Origin: Candidatus Sumerlaeia bacterium
Lineage (GTDB): Bacteria; Sumerlaeota; Sumerlaeia; SLMS01
Direction: 5' to 3'
Length of the DNA: 54,000 nt
Assembly: GCA_020831705.1 (NCBI GenBank)
Contig: JAFIGB010000312.1
Span: forward strand, 1 to 54,000
Shown: one piece after another, positions 1 through 11,803 of the stretch
Layout of the letters: every line of letters begins with the position of its first letter
Numbering within the stretch: position 1 is the stretch's first letter
Notes under the pieces: model-generated
Told to the model about the DNA's origin: nothing
The model's database searches: none
The model's input: the letters and a program-made list of their open reading frames with translations, nothing else
Translations under genes and position numbers: made by a program

Positions 1-771
1 ACGCCCGAGCCAACACCGGAACCCACCCCGACCCCGGAGCCGGAGCCGGAACCCACGCCCGAGGCATCGGCACTGACCGGTCTGCTCGACGCCCCGACAC
101 CGACGCCCGCCCCGGATCCCGTGCGTAGGTGGGAATATGACAGCGCCGGCATCATGCGGGTGGATCTCCCCGGCTTGACATACCCGGCCGCTGTATTAAC
201 GTGGGTCAACGAAACGCGGAACGAGAAATTGCTGGAGGGCGACTTGAAGGTGCTGCGCGAGAAGTCGGTCGAGGAGGTTGCCGCGTTGAAGCTGACATCG
301 GGTCGGCCCCCGCTTTACCTGCGGGAGGCCCGCCTTCCCGCCGCGCTGCACCTGATGCAGCCACGGCTCCTTCCCGCCATTATTCAGTCCGACAGTAATG
401 CGCCGGGCTTCGGCCCCTACTCGGTTCTCTTCTCCCTCAACGAGGAGGAGGCCGAGGTTCACGATCCCCGGACGGGTCGCCAGTTTGTTTCCATCGAGGT
501 CCTGGAGGACCATCTGACCGCCATCCATGTGCTGTTCTCCGATCCCTTTCAGGTGACGGGACTGCAGCGCCAGGACCGTGGTCCCCGGGTGGATGCCCTT
601 CAGGATCTTCTCCGTGAGATTGGTGTCTATCTGGCGGTGGAAAACAGCGGTACCTTCGATGCCACCACGGAAAGAGCAGTGCGCCGATTCCAGGAGGAAG
701 CCGGGCTTCCAGTCACTCCGGAAATCGACACCATGACTGCCTTCCATTTGATTCTGGAGGCTGCTCCATGA
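1..771 (+). CDS. Peptidoglycan-binding-domain protein, C-terminal part (possibly ExeA/GspA-like secretion accessory protein); 5' end outside window
   Basis: Frame +1 is open from base 1 (TPEPTPEPTPTPEPEPEPTP... Pro/Thr/Glu linker) to TGA 769-771, so the listed GTG at 121 is probably internal. The last ~60 aa (LQDLLREIGVYL..GTFDATTERAVRRFQEEAGLPVTPEIDTMT) fit the PG_binding_1 pattern. The stop overlaps the next start (ATGA 768-771). Confidence 0.6.
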   Translation, partial: TPEPTPEPTPTPEPEPEPTPEASALTGLLDAPTPTPAPDPVRRWEYDSAGIMRVDLPGLTYPAAVLTWVNETRNEKLLEGDLKVLREKSVEEVAALKLTSGRPPLYLREARLPAALHLMQPRLLPAIIQSDSNAPGFGPYSVLFSLNEEEAEVHDPRTGRQFVSIEVLEDHLTAIHVLFSDPFQVTGLQRQDRGPRVDALQDLLREIGVYLAVENSGTFDATTERAVRRFQEEAGLPVTPEIDTMTAFHLILEAAP

Positions 772-1475
772 GTTCGATCCTTGATGCCCTCGAAAAAGCC
801 CGCCGTGAGCGGGAGGCCCGCCAGGGCGAGGCCCAACCCGCGGGGGGTGAAGCTGGTGGTACGGCGACCTCATCGCCCATGACCCCCGCCGCCCAATCCC
901 ATCGCCTTGTCTATATGCTCATCGCCCTGATCATCATTGTGGTGCTCTTCGCGGGTATATCCATCGCCGCCGTTGTGTGGCTGGTTTCCGGCGATCGCAA
1001 TGGAGGGTCCGACCAGACCGTGGCCATGATTGCCCCCGTTCCCGTCGAGGCTCCCGAGGCAACACCAACACCCACTCCGGAACCGACCCCGTCGCCAACA
1101 CCGCAGCCCACACCAAGTCCCACACCGCAACCCACGGCCACTCCCCAGCCGACACCGACGCCATGGCCGTCCCCCACACCGTGGCCCAGCCCGACATCGC
1201 CTCCCCCGCCAACGGAAACACCCCGCCCCGAGGAAACACCGGTGCCACGGGAAGGTTACGCGGCCCTTTTCAAGACGGGCGACATCGTCCCCTCCCATCG
1301 CATTGGCCTTGAAGTTACGGGGATTATGGAGATGTCGTCGGGCAATATAGCCATCATCAACGACCGCCACATCCGTCCCGGACAAAAGGTGGGCGATCTG
1401 CATATCATCGAAATCAACATGAGCCACCTGGTTGTGGATCTCGGCGACGGTGTCGTGGTCAACGTGACCTACTGA
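768..1475 (+). CDS. GspB-like (type II secretion assembly factor B family) membrane-anchored protein
   Basis: N-terminal MSSILDALEKARRERE motif typical of GspB/ExeB. One TM helix (LVYMLIALIIIVVLFAGISIAAVVWLV), a long TPxPTP linker, and a C-terminal GLEVTGIM..IAIINDRHIRPGQKVGDLHIIEI segment resembling the T2SSB domain. Translationally coupled to the upstream PG-binding ORF. Confidence 0.55.
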   Translation: MSSILDALEKARREREARQGEAQPAGGEAGGTATSSPMTPAAQSHRLVYMLIALIIIVVLFAGISIAAVVWLVSGDRNGGSDQTVAMIAPVPVEAPEATPTPTPEPTPSPTPQPTPSPTPQPTATPQPTPTPWPSPTPWPSPTSPPPPTETPRPEETPVPREGYAALFKTGDIVPSHRIGLEVTGIMEMSSGNIAIINDRHIRPGQKVGDLHIIEINMSHLVVDLGDGVVVNVTY

Positions 1476-4400
1476 CCGGCGGTGACCCGGCCCGCCAATC
1501 GGATTCCCGTCCCATCCAGATAGAGCAGCGCCGTTGATCCCGCCACGCCTCCCAACGCCAGAAAATCCGTGCCAACAAGATATCCCGGCGATTCCATTCT
1601 TGTTGGCATTTCCCCATCCTCCTCAATAACGTGGGAGCAAATCAGGCTTCCATCCGGCTCCAGAACAAGCCACGCCCCACCGTCCGGCGCCCGCAGGGAA
1701 AGACCGCCGTCCATGCCAACGGTCACACCCGGGGGAGGATCCCCGCTGTCGACGGTGATGGCCCCATGTATATACAAGTTTCCGGACGCATCAAGGCTAC
1801 CCAGGTGTCCTTCGCCAACGAGGAGTACAAGACCACCATCCGCGAGCCACCTGCCAAAGGCATCCTCCCCCACCATGACTGGCATCCAAAAACGGACGCT
1901 CCCAATCTCCTGCCCGAGAACGCCATCCCCAAGTTCCACGCCGGTCACCTCGCCAAGTGCCCTCCAGGGAGGAACAGGGGAGGTGGGCAGCCGCAGGACA
2001 GGATCATCACCCGGTGACAGGCGCTCCATGGAGATCATTCCCGACTCCACATGACCCGTGGATATTGCCCGGGATTCAAGGGCGCGGACCAAATGCCCCG
2101 AACCGGAAAGGAGCCAGCGCAACGCAGGCGATGGCGGTACCCCATGGACAATGGAGGCGTCCAATGCGATACCGTCATGGCGTATCAATCGATGGGCACC
2201 CAGCGACTGGGAAGGATGCACGGCACGGGTGGAGAACCCCGGTTGATAGACACTTCCGCCAGGTAGCTTCACCCCGGGCGATTGGGCGGGATCCGGTGTA
2301 TAGACATCGAACCGCCACTTCCCCGTCCACCAGCGCAGGCCAAGAAGCCCCTCGGCAAGGGCCGTCTCCATGGCATCGGACACCGCATCCGCCCCCTGAA
2401 TGACGGCTCCAAACCCCATGTGGCGTGCGGTGCCGGCATCCCGGGCATCATCCACGGACGATTCGTCGAGATTCCCGCCATCCAAGCCCCCAAGCAGGGG
2501 ATCCATCAGCATGGAAACGATGGCATCTGCCGGGTTGGCGAGGCCGCCGTTGCCGACTCCACGACCCGCGACAAGGGCATGGATGGAGGTGGATGGCGCC
2601 ACCGATGTTGCGGGACGCAGTTCAGCCACCCACTGGACATCACGCAGGCGCAACGTCCAGGGACTGCCGGGCGACACCCCGGCGAGGACAAACCGAATCC
2701 ACGGACTTCCACCGTCGGGGCCAAGAAAGGCCATCCCCTCCCCTTCCTCCAGCAGGTGGGTAACCTCCAGACGGCCACGAAAGGCGACGATGGGCATGGT
2801 GGCCAGCGCCGTGACTGAAAGAGGGGAGGAAACGCCGACGGGTGCGGGCGGGGCAGCGCCACGGACCTCCAACGACGGTGTTTCAATGAACACATCCCCG
2901 CCGTCGGGAAGCTCCACCGCATATTCGGCGGCCGCATTTGTATAGTCAGCCCGATCCACAGGATTTGTCGGCTCCAGAACAAAAAAAAGGAGCTCCGTGC
3001 TGTCGGCTCCGACGGTGAAAATGTCCTCGTCGGCAACCATTCCATCAATCTTGATGCGCAGACGTATATCCACGGGGTCGGCATCATCCCTGTTGGTGAT
3101 ACGCATCGACAGGCGAATCCTGTCGACCTGCTCCGGGAGGTTTTCATTCGTCTGGATTCCACAAGAAATGCCCACCTCCGTGGATTGGTTAATTCCGTAT
3201 CCCTGCCGGTGTATATCGCCGATGATTTCCGAGTGAATGGCCCAGGAGCCGTCCAGCACCATGGGTGTCGATGGGGCGCGGTGCCAGCGTATATAAAAAC
3301 CGTCGTCCTTGTCGGGAACATCGGCACTCCCCGCTGCCGGGGCATCCTCCAGGCGGTACCCCTGGCCAATATTGATCATGGCCACCCGGCTTCCCTTCCC
3401 CACCATGACCTGCAGCTGGCCGCCGTCCTCCCAGAAGGCGCTTTCCGTGAAGTAAAACTCAAGGAACAGGCGCTCAACGAGGGCGTGGCGACGGTTCCCG
3501 ATGGATTGGTCCTTCGTATAGATGGCTTCCAATGTGTCACTTCCATGCTGCAAAAGCGCCCCCGCGCTCGCCACCTGGGCCGGGAAGGCATTGTTCCCAC
3601 CGAAGGAGCTGTTTTCTCCGGTGAGGCTCCAGCTCCCCTGGCCGTCACGGAGCGGTGTCTCGACGGAATCCCGCCCATGGAGAACACGAAGGGGGAGCGC
3701 ATCACGGGTGAAAAGCAACCAGTCGCGTCCGCCAGCATCCTCCTGCTCCACGGTGCCATCGACAATGGGACCGGACTCCAAATCGTCCATCCGTGTTTCC
3801 TCCACCGAGCCCGGATGATCGGCAACACACCAGCGAAGTGGCGTTTCGGAAAGGCGCAATACGGAGGCACCCCGTGGATGTTCCCGCGGCGCCGGGCGGG
3901 TCACAAATTGCAGGCGATCGGGATGTTCCATGTCCCATGTATATCCAATGACTTCGTCCTGAATCTGCACGGTCCCTTCGGGTGGCCAGGAAACCGGCCG
4001 AAGAAGAAGCGCCTCCGTCGCAGCGACGTCAATATCCTCCCCAAGTTGACCCCGTTCCACATGGAAAAGGGGAACACCATGTACCCACATCGTCCCAAAC
4101 ACCTGGGGAAGCAAGCGGTCATCCGAAAGGTCGGCAATGAATTGGGAGCGGCGGCGACAGAGGGGCCTTCCTCCGTTTGGGTAACCGTGATGAAAACGAA
4201 GTACCCACACCATGTCTTGACGCCGGATCTCGTGAAGGCGACCGATACAGATTTCAATCCATTCTGCATCGGGTTCGACACGGAGCGAAAGCACCGCCAT
4301 TACCGGAAGTGCCTTCTCCACCCCCGCCAGCAGCAACAGCGTGGGGAGCTCCTGATCCGTGGCGAGCTTGACGGTGAATTCCCCCCGGAGCGTACGCCGA

Positions 4401-4528
4401 ATGGTGTCAGGGAATCCAAATCCCTGGCGGACCTTCATGGTGGGATGACCCAGAAATCCCTCGGGTTCGACCACAAATTCCCCTCCGGGCCAGACAAGGG
4501 TCAATTTCCATGCTGGCTCCATCATCAT
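1469..4528 (-). CDS. Phage tail / host-specificity-like large protein (1019 aa)
   Basis: Long ORF with an ATGATGATG start overlapping the upstream stop and preceded by a GGAGGA SD. The internal segment NPADAIVSMLMDPLLGGLDGGNLDESSVDDARDAG..GFGAVIQGADAVSDAMETALAEGLLGLRWWTGKW resembles the 'putative phage tail protein' (Phage-tail_3, lambda J / GTA g15-like) domain. The rest is not recognised. Confidence 0.55.
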   Translation of the reverse strand: MMMEPAWKLTLVWPGGEFVVEPEGFLGHPTMKVRQGFGFPDTIRRTLRGEFTVKLATDQELPTLLLLAGVEKALPVMAVLSLRVEPDAEWIEICIGRLHEIRRQDMVWVLRFHHGYPNGGRPLCRRRSQFIADLSDDRLLPQVFGTMWVHGVPLFHVERGQLGEDIDVAATEALLLRPVSWPPEGTVQIQDEVIGYTWDMEHPDRLQFVTRPAPREHPRGASVLRLSETPLRWCVADHPGSVEETRMDDLESGPIVDGTVEQEDAGGRDWLLFTRDALPLRVLHGRDSVETPLRDGQGSWSLTGENSSFGGNNAFPAQVASAGALLQHGSDTLEAIYTKDQSIGNRRHALVERLFLEFYFTESAFWEDGGQLQVMVGKGSRVAMINIGQGYRLEDAPAAGSADVPDKDDGFYIRWHRAPSTPMVLDGSWAIHSEIIGDIHRQGYGINQSTEVGISCGIQTNENLPEQVDRIRLSMRITNRDDADPVDIRLRIKIDGMVADEDIFTVGADSTELLFFVLEPTNPVDRADYTNAAAEYAVELPDGGDVFIETPSLEVRGAAPPAPVGVSSPLSVTALATMPIVAFRGRLEVTHLLEEGEGMAFLGPDGGSPWIRFVLAGVSPGSPWTLRLRDVQWVAELRPATSVAPSTSIHALVAGRGVGNGGLANPADAIVSMLMDPLLGGLDGGNLDESSVDDARDAGTARHMGFGAVIQGADAVSDAMETALAEGLLGLRWWTGKWRFDVYTPDPAQSPGVKLPGGSVYQPGFSTRAVHPSQSLGAHRLIRHDGIALDASIVHGVPPSPALRWLLSGSGHLVRALESRAISTGHVESGMISMERLSPGDDPVLRLPTSPVPPWRALGEVTGVELGDGVLGQEIGSVRFWMPVMVGEDAFGRWLADGGLVLLVGEGHLGSLDASGNLYIHGAITVDSGDPPPGVTVGMDGGLSLRAPDGGAWLVLEPDGSLICSHVIEEDGEMPTRMESPGYLVGTDFLALGGVAGSTALLYLDGTGIRLAGRVTAGQ

Positions 4529-5493
4529 TCCTCCTGATTCAGAAAAGGATCAAAACTTTCCAGATGATTGGCGTCCCACTCGATGACAAGCCCATCCCGC
4601 TCCCCCGCCTCCAACCTCAATAGGGAACCCTCACGCAATCCACCATGGGGCGTGACGAGGAGGAACGACTGGCGGTCCTTTCTTTCGCGAAGGAACGCCT
4701 CCACGCCCTCCTGTATATTCTTCCGGCATGGATATACATGCCAGTGCACCCGTTCCCGCCATTGGCCGAGGAGCACTTGATGGCGATTCCCCCCAAGGTC
4801 ACGAAGGTTCCTCGACCATTCCTCCGGCGCGACAACACGCTTCTCCCGGATACCCCTCCCCAGTTCCACGCCATCCCCAAGTGTATAGATCACGGTGCCT
4901 GATTCCAGGGGGCGAACAAGTGGCTGTTCCAGGTGCAGGACACCATCTCCAGCAGTCATTTTCCCCGGGGACCACGCCCCACCATTGGCAATGACCCCGG
5001 TCATTTCCTCCCCGTCAATACCCTCCAGAATTGTGAAGGCTGTAATTTCATCGTTCCCCTCGGGCACTTTCTCATCCAACTCGAAGGCGGGCGAGGCTTG
5101 TGTGTATATACCTGCCGGGCGTTGAGCAGTGCCCGGGAAATGGGTGACAAGGTCAAGAATGATCCCCCGCACCAGCGGGTCGCCATCATGGCGCCGAAAG
5201 GCCTCAACCAGGGCGAAACCTGCCTCCAGTGCATCCGTGAGCTTGATCGCCGCCCGGACAAGTTCCTCCTCCTGGAAAGCGACCGACAATTCAAGGGACC
5301 AGGCCATGGTGCCATCCCGACGGAGCCCCCCCGTGAGCAAACGCGCCTCGGGAAGCCTGCGAATTCCCTCCTTCGACGCCTGCACACCCGGTTGCAGGCT
5401 TGCAAGAACATGCCAGCCGGGGAGGCATTCCCTGATGGCGTCGAGAAGGTGCTCCTTCATGTCCAGAATGTCATGCAAATCGGTGAATGGCAT
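4525..5493 (-). CDS. Phage neck/virion-associated hypothetical protein (322 aa)
   Basis: ATG at 5493 lies 6 nt after the DUF1320 stop, and the stop overlaps the next start (ATGA). It occupies the position of Mu gp37-type (DUF1834-like) neck proteins, but the sequence itself is not recognised. Confidence 0.5.
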   Translation of the reverse strand: MPFTDLHDILDMKEHLLDAIRECLPGWHVLASLQPGVQASKEGIRRLPEARLLTGGLRRDGTMAWSLELSVAFQEEELVRAAIKLTDALEAGFALVEAFRRHDGDPLVRGIILDLVTHFPGTAQRPAGIYTQASPAFELDEKVPEGNDEITAFTILEGIDGEEMTGVIANGGAWSPGKMTAGDGVLHLEQPLVRPLESGTVIYTLGDGVELGRGIREKRVVAPEEWSRNLRDLGGNRHQVLLGQWRERVHWHVYPCRKNIQEGVEAFLRERKDRQSFLLVTPHGGLREGSLLRLEAGERDGLVIEWDANHLESFDPFLNQEE

Positions 5494-5499
5494 GGGTGG

Positions 5500-5910
5500 T
5501 CACCATTTTCTCAGGATGGGGTTGCGGCGTGGGGGTGGTGTGTTTGTTCCATCCACACGCCTCCCTGGTGTATATCCGGGAACGGGATGGCGCCCCGCTG
5601 CCATTTCCTCCAGGATTTTCCGTGTTCGTACCGCACGTTCCGACCAATGCCCGGGAATCATTTCCCGCCGCCGATGAAAGAGATACTCGACGGCGAGCGT
5701 CACCGCATGGTCGACAAGGATTGGGTGGAGCACGGCGGATTCGTCTATACAATGGGGGGCAAGCATGGCACGCACCTCCCGTTCCCCGGATTCCAGGGCG
5801 CCCTGCAACACGTCAGGGCCGGGAAGGCCGGGATCGCCATCCTCGGAAAGCGCCGCGAGAACATCCGCCGACAAGGCCGACAGCAATTTTGCGGAGGAAA
5901 TCATCATCAT
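5500..5910 (-). CDS. DUF1320 (Mu gp36-like) head-tail connector protein
   Basis: MMMISSAKLLSALSADVLAALSEDGD...VLQGALESGEREVRAMLAPH...HAVTLAVEYLFHRRR...RKILEEMAAGR fits the DUF1320 pattern. I prefer the ATG cluster at 5904-5910, which has an AAAGGA SD, over the ORF-track start at 6015, which would overlap the capsid gene. Confidence 0.65.
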   Translation of the reverse strand: MMMISSAKLLSALSADVLAALSEDGDPGLPGPDVLQGALESGEREVRAMLAPHCIDESAVLHPILVDHAVTLAVEYLFHRRREMIPGHWSERAVRTRKILEEMAAGRHPVPGYTPGRRVDGTNTPPPRRNPILRKW

Positions 5911-5980
5911 TCCTTTCAGGGGAAACCGGGGATGCCATGGGAGCACCCCCGGTGGATTGCTCAATGGATTGCAGGTGGGA

Positions 5981-6922
5981 TCAGGAAACCGCGTTGCGCA
6001 GGATATACCCCGCACCCGGGGCGACGATCTTCTGGTCGTAATACTTCTGGACCCGGATCATAGTGGCCTTGCGGCGTTCCTCGCGCCAGGTCTGGACGCT
6101 GCTCCCGCGGCTGCTGCCAAGGGCCTGCCCCCAGATGAACGTCAACGCCGGGGCAACCATCTTGAGCGACGGGCGCTGCGGCACGTGAAGAAGGAGGACA
6201 TCATCACCCCAGATCGGCGCGAGATCCGGTTCCTGGCCCCGGGGAGCCACGTTCTGGAAGGCGCGTGCCACGAGGACCTTTTCGACGTCGAACAGTTCCG
6301 CCAGGACACCGGTCCCCACGACCCCGAGGCTTGAATACTTCACGCGCTCGACGATCTTCGGGTGGTTGCGGGCAACTGTATAGACGGAATGGGGAAGCAC
6401 GAGCACATTCGGCACGGCCTGCACCGCGGCGAGAATCGCATCCCGCCCCTCCTCGATCTGGGCCACGGGATCCACGCTGCTGTCATTCCAATCCTGCCCC
6501 GTCTGCCCAAGATCCACCCCGGGAAGGTTCCCCGGTTTGCGAAGAACCCCGGCAAGGTTTGCCTCCTGGTTGAGGAGAATCTTTTCGGTGAGAAATTCCA
6601 CGCGCTCAACCTGGGGCTGGAGGGGCGCATCGGCATTTTCCCGCTCCTCATCGGGGAGGGCGGATTCCAGGGCGTGATCGCTGCAGTAATACGAGTCCGA
6701 ACTGAGGGCGAAATCCACCTCGGTGGCCTCGGTCCCGGGAGCACGACCGTCCCACGTGGACCGGATCGTCTCCCGTTCGGGATCATGGATGAAGTAGCGG
6801 TCGCTTTGCTTGCGGACGCTGACCTCCGGGGCCAGTTCCCGGGCAATGAAGCCCGGATTGCGGTAGGCGATGCTCACGTTGGTGAGCGCAACATCGTAGT
6901 GGACGCTGTGAACGTCGGGCAT
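5981..6922 (-). CDS. HK97-fold major capsid protein (transposable-phage / capsid E type)
   Basis: N-terminus ...ALTNVSIAYRNPGFIARELAPEVSVRKQSDRYFIHD...RAPGTEATEVDF is the signature I associate with this major capsid family. Length is 313 aa. ATG 6922 is preceded by an AGGAAGG SD. It sits between decoration-like and connector genes. Confidence 0.75.
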   Translation of the reverse strand: MPDVHSVHYDVALTNVSIAYRNPGFIARELAPEVSVRKQSDRYFIHDPERETIRSTWDGRAPGTEATEVDFALSSDSYYCSDHALESALPDEERENADAPLQPQVERVEFLTEKILLNQEANLAGVLRKPGNLPGVDLGQTGQDWNDSSVDPVAQIEEGRDAILAAVQAVPNVLVLPHSVYTVARNHPKIVERVKYSSLGVVGTGVLAELFDVEKVLVARAFQNVAPRGQEPDLAPIWGDDVLLLHVPQRPSLKMVAPALTFIWGQALGSSRGSSVQTWREERRKATMIRVQKYYDQKIVAPGAGYILRNAVS

Positions 6923-6962
6923 TGTATATACCTTCCTTTCAGGTTTTCGTGAAGGGTTTCAA

Positions 6963-7646
6963 TCAACCGGCGAGATAGACATCGAAAATGTCACCAGCGC
7001 CGGAGGCACCATTTTCCGCGATGCCGATGGGGAAGCGTGTCTCGGGGAGGTTTTCCACCTGGAGAATCGCCGGAGCGACGATGCCGCTTCCAGTGCTTCC
7101 CGTCTCCGCATCCACATGGATCAAGGCAGCCAGGTCGTCGTCGGCCTCGATTTCCGCAATGAGCGAGGCCGCCGTCTGGATGACCTCGATTTCGTCGTGC
7201 TCAAGAACCAGACGGAGCGCGCCGCCGGTGAAGGACCAGGAAAAGGGCGCCGATTCGCCCGGGTCGTGGAGTTCCAGCGCAAGCCCCGCTGCAAAGTTTC
7301 CACGGTCGGCCCAGTGAAAAATCAGTGAGTTGTTCCCGCCGGCACTTCCGGTGCTCCAGCGGGGAAGCGGGCAACGCCCCAGGTGCCCCAGGTCGTTCAC
7401 CACACGGACGCGATCCCCACGGTCGATAATGCCGGTGGAAATGGCCCCGGTAATACCCAGGCGACGGACGGCAACGAATGCCCCCTCGCGGGGCTGGGAG
7501 TAGGTCGTGATGCCGAGGATGTGGGGATCGTCGGGGGTCGCAATGCGGCAGGTCCCCTCCCCCTCGGTGGCGACAACGGCAACACCCGCGTCAACACCCC
7601 CCTCGTTGAGAATGCGATACGCCTTGTCGAGGACGTAATTGGACAT
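6963..7646 (-). CDS. DUF2190-like capsid accessory/decoration protein (227 aa)
   Basis: Internal ATG at 7646 has a GGAGG SD 8 nt upstream, whereas the longer ORF start (7790) overlaps the protease gene. The N-terminal ~100 aa (AGVAVVATEGEGTCRIATPDDPHILGITTY..FVAVRRLGITGAI) resemble the DUF2190 beta-rich fold. Position between protease and capsid is typical. Confidence 0.45.
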   Translation of the reverse strand: MSNYVLDKAYRILNEGGVDAGVAVVATEGEGTCRIATPDDPHILGITTYSQPREGAFVAVRRLGITGAISTGIIDRGDRVRVVNDLGHLGRCPLPRWSTGSAGGNNSLIFHWADRGNFAAGLALELHDPGESAPFSWSFTGGALRLVLEHDEIEVIQTAASLIAEIEADDDLAALIHVDAETGSTGSGIVAPAILQVENLPETRFPIGIAENGASGAGDIFDVYLAG

Positions 7647-7678
7647 GATGATCAAGCCTCCATCGTGTATAGATTGAT

Positions 7679-8458
7679 TTACGTGGTGGCGCCAAGGAGC
7701 GCCGTTCGGTAGTCGAGTTCGGGGTTTTGCGCCATGAGGCCAAGGGCACGGAGGTGGGCCTCGGCGGAGGCCGGTTCGGAGACGCCGCACAACCCCGCCG
7801 AAAAGGATGCCGTCGCCTCCGTCATGATCTCCTCCCGCGCACCCGGTGTTACGGGAACGGGAGGAACGGACAACACGGCAACAAGGCGGTTGCGGGCTTC
7901 ATCGCCGGGGAGATGGGCGAAAAGGTCGAAGACCCCTTCCTCCTCCCAGCGCGGGTTCCAGGTGCCCGCCTCCTCCAGCGACTTGCGGATGGCGCCGCGA
8001 TCCACTTCCGCTTCCGGCACCGGCTCGGTTTCGAGGGTAAACGAGACAATGTCGGCCTCATCGGTGGAAAAGGCGGGATCGGCAAGACCGCTTACCCGGG
8101 GCGTTGCCGCGCCAAGAAAGCTGACCGCCTTGAGGTATGGCGCTCCGGTGTCACGAAAACGGCGGAAAAGCTCGACGCTTCGCTTGCGAAAGGCACCGGA
8201 CCGAACGGCCTCCACAAGGGCGGGGCTGAGACGCCCGAGCCGTGCCACCAGCCGGTCGCCAACGACCTTCAACCCCGCAACCCAGCCATGGGCGGGACCA
8301 TCCTGGGCGTGGTCGATGGTCACCGGCGCCTCGTGGAGGTCCGGGTTGTAGTTACCGGCAACACGGGCCAGGTCGTCATCTGTATAGACGCCCCGGGCAC
8401 CATAATCGCCGCTTCGGAAGACCTCAATTTCGAGTTCATCCTCGTTTGGATTCACCAT
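7679..8458 (-). CDS. Mu gpI-like head maturation protease/scaffold
   Basis: ATG 8458 with an AAAGGAG SD. N-terminal ...VFRSGDYGARGVYTDDDLARVAGNYNP..APVTIDHAQDGPAHGWVAGLKV resembles the Mu-like prophage I protein family. It lies immediately downstream of the portal gene. Confidence 0.6.
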   Translation of the reverse strand: MVNPNEDELEIEVFRSGDYGARGVYTDDDLARVAGNYNPDLHEAPVTIDHAQDGPAHGWVAGLKVVGDRLVARLGRLSPALVEAVRSGAFRKRSVELFRRFRDTGAPYLKAVSFLGAATPRVSGLADPAFSTDEADIVSFTLETEPVPEAEVDRGAIRKSLEEAGTWNPRWEEEGVFDLFAHLPGDEARNRLVAVLSVPPVPVTPGAREEIMTEATASFSAGLCGVSEPASAEAHLRALGLMAQNPELDYRTALLGATT

Positions 8459-8509
8459 CTGAATCTCCTTTCCTGAATTTGGGCCTTTGTTGTGTGGGAA
8501 ACGGGCCGT

Positions 8510-9955
8510 CTATACAGGCCGGTTCCCCGTGTCCTCCCGGGATCCCGGGACCCCCTCGACACGGACGCCATGGTCGGCCGTCCGCATTCCTCCCCAGGGA
8601 ACGGGGGGAAGCTGGAGCCGCTCGCGGACCTCGTTGATCGTCAGCACACCAAACTGAAGGTGATACTGGTAGAAGTTCGCATCGTCGTATTTGAGGGGAA
8701 GCTCGCCCGGCTGGGGTGCGGGGCGACCATATCGTGTATAGAAGTAGGATTGAGGCAGGGAAACACCCAGCCCGAGGAGGGCCTGGTCCACGCGAATCCG
8801 CTGATATAGATCCTCCGGCCCCTCGGTTTCGATGGCAAGACGGGGGCGGGGCGCATCAGCGGGGAGGTTTGCCTCGCAAATCCAGCCAATCAATGTCTCG
8901 TTGATCGTTGTTTCCAGAAGCCGGGCATCGGCATCAATATAGTCCTGGCGAACGAGCTGGTGGATGTTTCCAAGGGCCAGCGACCCGCTTCTTCGCCCCT
9001 CGCCACTGGTGAGCGTCGCCCCGAGGATGATCTTCGACATCTCGTCGTTGCACCAATCGAGGAGATCCCGATAACAGCGCCCATCACCGGAACGATTCGA
9101 CTCCAAGAGTTGAAGACGGATGCTTTCGGGGAGGATCACATGGGATTCCGCGTGGAGGGCATCGAGGATTTCGGTCAGGCGGCGCTGGTCCTCGCCGCTG
9201 ATCCCCGGGGCGCAGGTCGCCACGGTGGTCGGCGATCCATGTTTCTCGTTATAGACACCCCACGACTTGAGGGCATTTTTCTTGAACCAATACATCCAGT
9301 AGGCGTGTTGGGCGAGGCCGCGTCCGTAGGGATTGCGAAAATCCGCCCCGAATGTCAGCGCGATGAACTTCCTCGGAGGCGCCGGGAAATGCTGACGCGC
9401 GGGAATGGGATGACGGCCCGGGCCTTCTGTCCCATCCACCTCACGCGCCCTTGAGCTGGAACGGAATGGCGGCGAAAGCAGGTTCAACCCACCAGCCTGG
9501 TCGAGGAGGAACCACTCCTGCGGATGGGCGATCCAGTTGACGGGAACAAGGTGCCCCGCGCTGTTGTAATCCCAGACGAGTTCCACCACGGAAAAGCCCT
9601 TGGAAATTGCCTCCAACAGGGCACGCAGAAGCCCCTCAAAACGGGGAATGGAATGCAGGGCATCCTCGACAAATTGCGCGGCATGGCGTGCCGTTTCATC
9701 CCCCGACCGGGCAGGAAGCACCTGGCGGGGAAGTCCCAGCAGCCCATTGAGACGTGTCTGAAGGAGGGAAAAAAGATGCCCGTCCTTTTCCTCCATTTCG
9801 GCATACAACTCATAAACGGAGCGATGGACCCGCCCCGAAGAGGATTCAGCCTGCAGCAACGCCACGGGCGATCGATCATCACGAAGCCCCTGGCCCGCCC
9901 ACCATTGCTCGGCGGGGTTGACCAGCGGCTGGACTTTTGCAGATGGGCTTGGCAC
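8510..9955 (-). CDS. Phage portal protein, DUF935 (Mu gp29-like)
   Basis: 481-aa ORF with a GTG start at 9955 and a GGGAGGA SD 5 nt upstream. Size, position and sequence character match DUF935 portals (family assignment by recognition, not search). Confidence 0.7.
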   Translation of the reverse strand: MPSPSAKVQPLVNPAEQWWAGQGLRDDRSPVALLQAESSSGRVHRSVYELYAEMEEKDGHLFSLLQTRLNGLLGLPRQVLPARSGDETARHAAQFVEDALHSIPRFEGLLRALLEAISKGFSVVELVWDYNSAGHLVPVNWIAHPQEWFLLDQAGGLNLLSPPFRSSSRAREVDGTEGPGRHPIPARQHFPAPPRKFIALTFGADFRNPYGRGLAQHAYWMYWFKKNALKSWGVYNEKHGSPTTVATCAPGISGEDQRRLTEILDALHAESHVILPESIRLQLLESNRSGDGRCYRDLLDWCNDEMSKIILGATLTSGEGRRSGSLALGNIHQLVRQDYIDADARLLETTINETLIGWICEANLPADAPRPRLAIETEGPEDLYQRIRVDQALLGLGVSLPQSYFYTRYGRPAPQPGELPLKYDDANFYQYHLQFGVLTINEVRERLQLPPVPWGGMRTADHGVRVEGVPGSREDTGNRPV

Positions 9956-10070
9956 CAGATTCCTCCCGGCATGGAAATCTCACCGCGCCTTCAACGCGGT
10001 ACGGTGCCAACATCGCCAACTGGGTATCCGCCTTCCGGACTCCACGGACTCGGCGGACAAATTCGCCCAC

Positions 10071-10101
10071 AAAGAAAACCCGGAGGTGAAGTTCCTCCGG
10101 G
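10071..10101 (-). terminator. Rho-independent terminator downstream of plsX
   Basis: 8-bp stem CCCGGAGG (10079-10086) / CCTCCGGG (10094-10101) with a 7-nt loop, followed on the minus strand by TTTTCTTTG. It separates plsX from the phage module. Confidence 0.6.
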
Positions 10102-10134
10102 CCCAGTCCTGCATCCGTTCTGCTGTCTATCTAT

Positions 10135-11353: not shown

Positions 11354-11476
11354 GGGCAGATTCATCCTTGGTGGCTTGGATTGAGTGAACAAGGAGGCCT
11401 TTAGAGCATTGGAAGGTTGGCGGTCGTAATCCTGAAACGAGGTGTCTCCTGACGCCAGATCTGGGAGGCGACAAGG
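11354..11476. repeat. 123-bp direct repeat, copy 1
   Basis: Aligns to 11562-11684 with 5 mismatches by eye, and the last ~78 nt are identical. Contains the palindrome CCAGATCTGG. The two copies fall in different reading frames of the overlapping minus-strand ORFs, so they are non-coding. Confidence 0.85.
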
Positions 11477-11484
11477 GTGGCAAA

Positions 11485-11530
11485 CCGTTACCAATGTCCT
11501 GAACCTGAAACGTTACCTATGTCTTGAACC
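11485..11530. repeat. Short tandem repeat (CGTTACC-WATGTCYTGAACC, two units, period about 26)
   Basis: ccgttaccaatgtcctgaacc (11485-11505) and cgttacctatgtcttgaacc (11511-11530), in the spacer between the two 123-bp copies. Confidence 0.6.
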
Positions 11531-11561
11531 CGCACCAAGGATGGGAAGTCAAAGCGAGAGA

Positions 11562-11684
11562 GGGCAGATTCATCCTTGATGCTTTGGATTAAGTGAACAA
11601 GGAGGTCTTTAGAGCATTGGAAGGTTGGCGGTCGTAATCCTGAAACGAGGTGTCTCCTGACGCCAGATCTGGGAGGCGACAAGG
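11562..11684. repeat. 123-bp direct repeat, copy 2
   Basis: See copy 1. Both copies are preceded by a related AAGGATGG(G)AAG leader. Confidence 0.85.
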
Positions 11685-11803
11685 ATGAGGGATGAAGTTC
11701 AAATGATGAATAAAGCTACATCAAGTTTAGAAATAAGTCTGCTTTAATGTAATTTTTTTATATTCAAAATCTATTCATCCTTCCTCCTTCATCCCTCATC
11801 CTT
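11681..11803. repeat. Perfect 17-bp inverted repeat enclosing an 89-nt AT-rich loop
   Basis: AAGGATGAGGGATGAAG (11681-11697) pairs with CTTCATCCCTCATCCTT (11787-11803). The loop 11698-11786 is the most AT-rich stretch in this part of the window. The structure starts about 10 nt after the stop of the 403-aa gene. Confidence 0.8.

Follow-up and report, generated by a model that had tools for sequence, protein, structure and literature searches.

What would a bacterial chromosome hold on to phage head and tail genes for, when the genes that package and move a phage do not stand beside them? This question is raised by a locus of a Candidatus Sumerlaeia bacterium (phylum Candidatus Sumerlaeota, formerly BRC1) on a 54,000-nt stretch of DNA (GenBank assembly GCA_020831705.1, contig JAFIGB010000312.1), called the window below, which is the entire contig C155 of a metagenome-assembled genome of 502 contigs (N50 11.9 kb, 84.6% complete). 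Seven intact, closely spaced genes on the minus strand (1469-9955) specify Mu-type head proteins, a neck-to-baseplate protein and a baseplate hub. As an earlier sequence-only reading of this DNA had noted, the window contains no terminase, transposase, integrase, tape measure, tube or sheath gene; that reading considered a decaying prophage and a domesticated particle system, either resembling gene transfer agents (GTAs) or formed by a capsid-forming satellite. Comparison with related genomes indicates that the locus is probably an operon for the head, neck and tail tip of a GTA-like viriform, a Mu-type particle system domesticated long ago. The fuller GTA reading, in which these genes would make DNA-filled heads with a stub tail under host control, we regard as a real possibility rather than as the expected outcome.

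The capsid gene was detected in 62 of 75 species genomes of the phylum, all of them in the class Sumerlaeia (62/73, compared with 0/2 outside it), and in 35 of 41 relatives. It is nearly always single copy and never has internal stops, and the module as a whole is single-copy in 83% of species. Across 34 Sumerlaeota loci the order portal, protease, cement protein, capsid and adaptor is kept, followed in some by the gene slot between adaptor and hub (c7), the hub and the fibre (c8), whereas the flanks vary; the portal is the first module gene in 27/27 loci, and the protease gene is conserved in 33. On a capsid tree of 34 loci, host-family labels require nine changes, the minimum possible, whereas shuffled labels require 22 on average and none of 200 shuffles was as low as nine. 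Genus pairs are sisters on this tree, and the tree of the large terminase subunit (TerL) repeats the host-family pairs seen for the capsid. Capsid identity to the window also tracks plsX identity (Spearman 0.74, p = 2e-6): 62-68% for the capsid and 68-73% for plsX within the family, 53-67% and 55-62% within the order, and 46-59% and 48-54% within the class.

Selection on the module was assessed by the ratio of nonsynonymous to synonymous substitution rates (dN/dS), using only pairs with unsaturated dS (0.1-0.25). The ratios were 0.02-0.06 for the capsid, 0.08 for the portal and 0.03-0.08 for the adaptor, and 0.23 for the protease, 0.24-0.37 for the cement protein, 0.13-0.25 for c7 and 0.16-0.20 for the hub. 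A 22.7-kb metagenomic contig, L095, carries a capsid gene 90% identical to that of the window; between the two, dN/dS, calculated on saturated dS, is 0.08 for the capsid and 0.10 for the portal, and identity is 90% for the capsid, 84% for the portal, 94% for plsX, 34% for the 322-aa protein encoded between adaptor and hub and 45% for the hub. Thus, the dN/dS and synteny comparison that the sequence-only reading had proposed gave ratios well below 1 for every gene and a gene order kept in the close relative, and these results, with presence in 62/75 genomes and a minimum-change tree, favour the domesticated, GTA-like option it had raised. Together, these comparisons indicate that the module is inherited vertically within the class Sumerlaeia under purifying selection. 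Caudovirus-derived genes that reside in a host genome and co-evolve with it, as found here, belong to the definition of viriforms and GTAs given in PMC9662315.

A particle that packages DNA needs a terminase, and the module was described in the sequence-only reading as terminase-less. The Pfam Terminase_6N probe matched in only 5 of 41 genomes, because Pfam does not cover Mu-type TerL; with phrog_38, used for this reason, Mu-type TerL was found in 38/41 relatives, usually once. The description is hence true of the locus and not of the lineage. TerL has no conserved neighbourhood among 14 loci. It is convergent and directly after the fibre gene in genome G012, lies 6.8 kb upstream of the portal in G004 and, in the complete genome G036, is separated from the head genes by 130 kb. 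G033, likewise complete, has its head genes at 0.15 Mb, c7 and hub together at 5.606 Mb and TerL at 5.643 Mb, so that parts of the set lie more than 500 kb apart. The capacity of a Mu-type capsid is a few tens of kb, and with parts 130 kb to more than 500 kb apart in complete genomes the full set would fit into no capsid. Provided that DNA is packaged, a particle would hold at most part of its own genes, which is another of the features by which GTAs are recognized.

In many genomes a small open reading frame (ORF) of ~95-110 aa, read in another frame than TerL, overlaps the beginning of the TerL gene. This ORF is conserved and helical with an acidic C-terminus (loci L081, L082, L083 and L085; L083:19468-19752, minus strand) and matches no family, and we consider it a candidate for a new small-terminase-like partner. 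The genome of the window encodes this partner at C447:19790-20020, with 42% identity (2e-16) to the G004 partner; C447:19700-20020 corresponds to L114:1501-1821, and Mnh/Mrp-antiporter-like genes lie upstream of the partner. In two genera of family f13, TerL is split into an ATPase ORF and a nuclease ORF at the same profile position (~537-543; G033:C1:5642868-5644764 and G039:C101:2180-3968), which suggests a conserved split gene rather than a pseudogene. TerL is also found in two pieces in G002, G007, G019 and G030.

Could the window simply show one part of a temperate Mu-like prophage, of a common family co-speciating with its hosts, whose other genes lie outside the contig? The genes are phage-type by every test, Mu-like siphophages with 35-37% identical capsids occur in IMG/VR, and genome G025 carries a real prophage with homologous genes for the distal tail protein (Dit), hub and fibre. 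In addition, the window starts at a contig end, so the absence of phage genes to the left cannot be judged from the window alone. In L095, however, no phage genes follow past the position of the left end of the window, and host genes flank the module on both sides: the order is a sigma-54 activator, a 904-aa protein, plsX, a 410-aa gene, the seven module genes, a GspB-like gene, an ExeA-like gene in full length (697 aa), a gene for 210 aa and a DNA polymerase of family B (DNA_pol_B). Contiguous phage genes just outside the window, which the sequence-only reading had named as a refutation of its proposal, are thus missing from this relative. The portal always comes first with host genes before it; the flanks vary between genera, and the portal's upstream neighbour is a different gene in every genus and never TerL. 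Neither TerL directly before the portal together with a complete tail, nor transposition, repressor and lysis genes contiguous with the late genes, was found, as would mark a Mu-like prophage. No transposase, repressor, tape measure or tube was detected anywhere in the genome's own assembly, and MuA/MuB transposition, repressor and lysis genes are absent from the window, the 22.7-kb L095 and the own assembly alike. There is no tRNA in the window, nor are there att-like flanking repeats around the module. The distances between the parts in G036 and G033 already contradict a temperate prophage; single-copy presence in 83% of species and a tree that matches host taxonomy also speak against it, and we consider it extremely unlikely.

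The prophage of G025 (G025:C26:95001-135000, covered by L101 and L102) serves well as an outgroup. In this Mu-like siphophage prophage a 681-aa gene, a TerL interrupted by stop codons, the genes for portal, an F-like protein, protease, capsid, gp36 and Neck1, an ORF at the terminator position, a putative tube gene (275 aa), chaperone genes, a tape-measure gene (818 aa) and the genes for Dit, hub and fibre are contiguous. The IMG/VR siphophages whose capsids show 35-37% identity resemble it, and such a prophage is the likely kind of ancestor of the domesticated set. A true prophage of this kind is rare (2 of 41 genomes). Family f5 retains gp36, a terminator-like gene, an Ig-domain protein, two small genes, Dit, hub and fibre, which is the prophage order minus the tape measure; the window lineage also lost the middle genes and fused the terminator to Dit. 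The Neck1, tube, tape-measure, F-like and MuA-like proteins of G025 have no homologue in the window's own assembly. Replication, transposition, lysogeny and tape-measure genes have gone from the set, and in the window lineage so has the tail tube. A 6-kb Sumerlaeota-type module fragment with 61% capsid identity (L068, IMGVR_UViG_3300016457_000611) is listed as viral in IMG/VR.

This loss of most phage functions, the truncated tail, the loss of the hub in some families and a TerL present as two ORFs in some genomes would all fit the decaying prophage of the sequence-only reading, a functionless remnant still intact by chance. Yet there are no stops in 62 genomes across a class, and dN/dS values of 0.02-0.37 already contradict the absence of function; the capsid is about as conserved as plsX. 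The true prophage, rare as it is, differs from the module in being contiguous, in having a tape measure and in its adjacent TerL with stops. We find a chance survivor barely credible and reject this option. Overall, the comparisons argue firmly for a non-mobile, vertically inherited, selected and multi-locus set of Mu-type particle genes.

The seven genes themselves are borne out by gene positions and by Pfam and PHROG profiles. The first, the Mu-type portal (8510-9955, minus strand as all seven; 481 aa, GTG start), matches PF06074 Portal_Mu (1e-92) and phrog_113, and its nearest solved structures are the portals of JBD30 (8rka, 5e-33) and Mu (9khx, 2e-21). It is followed by a gpI-like head maturation protease of 259 aa with a C-terminal scaffold-like part (7679-8458; phrog_976 2e-35, residues 10-172) and by a capsid cement/decoration protein of 227 aa (6963-7646). 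The cement ORF itself has no direct Pfam match because of a lineage-specific insert of ~100 aa that, by profile, splits its core; orthologues in other Sumerlaeota match PF22758 and, at 9e-8 and above cut-off, PF09956 Phage_cement_2 (formerly DUF2190). The major capsid protein, of Mu gpT/HK97-fold type (5981-6922, 313 aa), matches phrog_1005 (2e-74) and PDB entry 3bjq (6e-28). The head-tail adaptor of Mu gp36/DUF1320 type (5500-5910; PF07030 1e-4, phrog_195 5e-10) is 136 aa long when counted from its ATG. A longer GTG version runs into the capsid gene, and in L095 the adaptor was called at 133 aa, which agrees with the ATG start. The neck-to-baseplate protein of 322 aa (4525-5493) and the baseplate hub/tail-tip protein of 1019 aa with a C-terminal beta-rich tip (1469-4528) complete the module. 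Intergenic gaps are 51, 32, 40, 70 and 6 nt, with one 4-nt overlap; of the translational coupling proposed earlier, the tight packing is real and true overlap is confined to the last pair. Shine-Dalgarno-like sites do precede six of the seven starts (GGGAGGA, AAAGGAG, GGAGG, AAGGAAGG, AAAGGA and AGGAGGA), and the last ORF overlaps the convergent gene at 768-1475 by 7 nt.

Upstream, an intrinsic terminator of plsX (10076-10104, minus strand), an 11-pair stem followed by the T-run TTTTCTTTGT, confirms the terminator noted earlier and marks the upstream boundary of the module's transcription unit. The surrounding plsX...ExeA-like locus is, on comparison with L095, fixed within the genus; the setting between plsX and an ExeA/GspB-like pair is kept at that level and not across the class. 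We had considered plsX and the ExeA-like and GspB-like genes as functional partners and dropped them, as they adjoin the module only within the genus. The 410-aa gene of L095 (L095:5493-6725) is in reverse orientation, inserted between plsX and the portal promoter region, where the window has only the terminator and 120 nt. The ExeA-like gene, 697 aa in this relative, is truncated by the contig start in the window, and Pro/Thr/Glu-rich 29-nt repeats (window 1-59 and 1050-1114) are common to the ExeA-like and GspB-like genes. Upstream of plsX, two 126-nt direct repeats, 95% identical and 208 nt apart (11354-11687), are bordered by purine-rich repeats; as far as seen, they do not occur in the plsX region of the relative.

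Are the two tail-side genes parts of a tail, and of which one? The AlphaFold2 model of the 322-aa protein (predicted local distance difference test score, pLDDT, 76) matched in Foldseek the Mu tail terminator (9khy), lambda gpU and tube and terminator proteins of T1 and T5, and against BFVD it matched, via one domain, dozens of proteins of 120-160 aa annotated as tail terminator or tail completion. In family f5, a profile built from the first 150 residues picked out a stand-alone gene (156 aa) immediately behind gp36 (5e-8), and phrog_490 is common to this gene, to the N-domain of an orthologue and to the terminator-position ORF of the G025 prophage. The C-terminal part matches a gene of 206 aa located at the Dit position of that prophage, after the tape measure. 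Because the N-part has the terminator fold and phrog_490 and the C-part matches at the Dit position, we read the predicted 322-aa structure as a fusion of a terminator-fold neck protein (~145 aa) with a Dit-like distal tail protein (~180 aa). Genes for the two parts stand separate in other lineages. For the 1019-aa protein (pLDDT 79), Foldseek matches included Sf11 tail chain E (6e-12), the T5 hub pb3 (7e-7), the DT57C baseplate, the lambda tail tip and chain 6tba_7A of the RcGTA virion; every one of the best fold matches is a siphovirus protein of the tail tip or baseplate hub, with template modelling scores that are low because of the many domains, and its homologue comes after Dit in the G025 prophage. 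By its modelled fold it is a siphovirus baseplate hub of the Tal/gpJ/pb3 type. The structure search proposed in the sequence-only reading thus gave a terminator-Dit fusion and a hub, and the idea of a tail fibre at 1469-4528 did not hold.

The hub gene is present in 48 of 75 genomes and absent from families f7 (13 genomes) and f6. In these Sumerlaeaceae-type genomes (G036:C1:2333074, L042, L044 and L048) portal, protease, cement protein and capsid, along with an adaptor, occur with TerL and without a hub homologue; in some f7/f6 loci a different gene of 250-310 aa (cluster c12) comes after that for the capsid or adaptor.

Head genes with an incomplete tail are also what a capsid-forming satellite or other helper-dependent element, of the kind represented by capsid-forming phage-inducible chromosomal islands (cf-PICIs), would have: such an element would build its own heads and borrow tail parts or whole tails from a Mu-like siphophage. 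Related siphophages with a compatible neck, Dit and hub do infect the phylum, and the tail-side genes evolve fast. However, integrase, primase or replication module, att site and tRNA are lacking, the module is inherited vertically at a locus fixed within the genus, its scattered parts are not packageable as a unit, and the lineage has a terminase of its own. A distal tip of its own would be needless for a tail borrower. A satellite is, in our view, very unlikely, and this option of the sequence-only reading finds no support.

How might a set of genes at several loci be expressed together? A repeat element (GTCCGCCGAGTCCGTGGAGTCCGGAA) of three phased direct repeats, GTCCGCCGA GTCCGTGGA GTCCGGAA, with a period of 9 (10033-10058, minus strand) lies past the plsX terminator, ~80-105 nt upstream of the portal start. 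L095 has kept it despite saturation at synonymous sites. A second conserved non-coding block between the repeats and the portal (9991-10008, minus strand), GGCACCGTACCGCGTTGA, is identical in the window and L095 and is a possible core promoter. A promoter scan found no sigma-70-like site, and a sigma-54 reading of TGGCAC in the conserved block was dropped, since the GC spacing is one base short and the block is not kept in other families. Of 18 portal loci, 8 (from families f1, f3 and f7) have phased GT[CT]C arrays at -100 to -147, compared with 3% of control windows (Fisher p = 9e-8).

In the own genome, an 18/19 copy of the element lies 73 nt before the TerL-partner gene on C447, and apart from it the 92-nt portal leader has no further match of note there. 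Another strict match of the element, at C64:12870, lies inside a membrane-protein gene and was taken as chance. Portal and TerL upstream regions also align with each other in relatives, with scores of 42 in G004 and 98 in G022, whereas shuffled G012 sequences reached at most 23. In G022 the element belongs to a family of at least 40 copies (L103-L112) of 60-74 nt, TTGTCTGATAAGTGTATTTTGTCTTTCTTGTTCCCGA.GCTCCACATGAGGGGACAAACGG. Most copies examined lie ~40-70 nt upstream of genes and point at them, and the genes behind them are not related to one another; they include pgk as well as the genes for the portal, the TerL partner, an ankyrin protein and a PHP protein. The G022 repeat appears to be a dispersed promoter-bearing element. 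A module-specific regulon defined by the element, which we had entertained, is weakened by these copies before unrelated genes. The upstream comparisons instead point to a host type of promoter or operator and to an integration of the module into host transcription; they do not show a dedicated regulon.

These observations suggest a model for how the particle would be made. A host factor acting on the repeat element would switch on both the module and the terminase loci. Portal, protease/scaffold and capsid protein would assemble a procapsid, which the protease would mature and the cement protein stabilise. The unlinked terminase would fill the head with DNA, most probably host DNA by headfuls, and the gp36 adaptor would close the portal. 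The 322-aa terminator-Dit fusion would then form the direct link between the neck and a hub trimer of the 1019-aa protein, giving a tube-less stub tail whose fast-evolving hub tip, with a separate fibre in relatives, would bind target cells. In the reduction of the tail, the tape measure would have been lost first, followed in the window lineage by tube and chaperones, and the terminator would have been fused to Dit. A tube-less stub that couples the neck to a siphovirus hub would be a virion architecture unknown from characterised phages and GTAs. That the system is a class-wide, undescribed GTA, independently domesticated from a Mu-like siphophage, distributed over two or three loci and shaped by stepwise tail reduction, is an attractive interpretation on which we would not yet rely. 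Similarly conceivable, though we lean slightly away from it, is the corresponding arrangement of one locus for the head, one for neck and tail tip and one for TerL with the new small partner, behind a host-type repeat-bearing promoter.

Several observations weigh against a domesticated particle system of this kind. Co-occurrence of capsid and TerL is only marginal (p = 0.05), and four genomes carry TerL without a capsid gene. Tblastn and profile searches of the own assembly found neither TerL nor the fibre (c8), and the fibre is also absent beside the hub in the 90%-identical relative. The search for a terminase in the rest of the genome, suggested in the sequence-only reading, thus returned the partner gene alone, and C447 ends inside that gene. 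This contig end accounts for the missing TerL in an 84.6%-complete assembly, and the own TerL should lie directly past it. No lysis genes or regulator were identified in the own genome. As at least 40 copies of the G022 element precede ordinary genes, the element is not private to the particle system. The tail-side genes (4525-5493 and 1469-4528, compared with L095:11419-15497) diverge much faster than the head genes, with dS saturated for this pair; a receptor arms race or relaxed constraint could be behind this. We know of no characterised precedent for a siphovirus-type tail tip without tape measure or tube, which makes DNA delivery doubtful. Finally, since f7 keeps head and TerL without a hub, the conserved function may need only a filled head.

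Some of these points would suit a set of genes domesticated for another host role, in which DNA-filled or empty capsids would, for instance, export or store DNA, act as a decoy in defence against Mu-like phages or form a protein shell: f7 does without a hub, a tape measure or tube for DNA delivery is missing, and the promoter element is common to ordinary genes. However, the parts under selection, namely portal, adaptor, terminase and a receptor-type hub and fibre, are those of packaging and attachment, and a shell alone needs neither portal nor TerL. We consider such a role unlikely. An encapsulin nanocompartment was likewise set aside, as the capsid occurs together with a portal, an adaptor, a maturation protease and a conserved terminase.

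A literature search returned no paper linking Sumerlaeota or BRC1 with phage particles or GTAs. To our knowledge, the known GTAs are few (RcGTA-like, BaGTA, VSH-1, Dd1 and VTA), each limited to one clade. If a domesticated GTA-like system is indeed present, it would represent an independent origin of host-owned virus-like particles in the uncultured, globally distributed Sumerlaeota, and capsid-mediated gene exchange would need considering in more lineages. The locus would also record stages of domestication, with the terminase unlinked, tail genes moved to a third locus, first the tape measure and then the tube lost, two neck/tail proteins fused and the genes wired to a host promoter element. 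The minimal needs of a DNA-delivering particle would become testable by expression and cryo-electron microscopy. Prophage finders and IMG/VR list such loci as viral, which would inflate prophage counts.

Among known systems, the module is closest in its parts to the Mu-like siphophages of the JBD30/D3112 group and to the Mu head, with the same families and the same order of portal, protease/scaffold, cement protein, capsid and gp36, and it has the Dit-hub-fibre order of the G025 prophage. Unlike these phages, it is without MuA/B, repressor, lysis genes, adjacent small and large terminase genes and a gpF-like minor head protein, as well as Neck1, tube, chaperones and tape measure, and its terminator and Dit are fused. 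It shares with cf-PICIs its own head genes and an incomplete tail; cf-PICIs, in contrast, are mobile and patchy, with integrase, regulation and replication modules and att sites, none of which were seen at the module. The RcGTA-type GTAs (Rhodogtaviriformidae), which have a multi-locus 'genome' (PMC5026251), differ from the Sumerlaeota set in host phylum and in protein families, since here portal, protease, capsid and adaptor are of Mu type and not of the HK97/RcGTA families. They also differ in layout: the RcGTA main cluster opens with the small and large terminase genes and has a short complete siphovirus tail, whereas TerL is unlinked from the Sumerlaeota head genes and the module has no tape measure or tube. 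As a set of genes, the Sumerlaeota system nevertheless resembles RcGTA in consisting of phage-derived head-tail genes that are inherited vertically under purifying selection across a large host clade, in being without replication and lysogeny genes, in having its parts at several loci, so that a particle would not carry all of them, and possibly in a host-type regulation, and an RcGTA virion chain, 6tba_7A, is among the fold matches of its hub.

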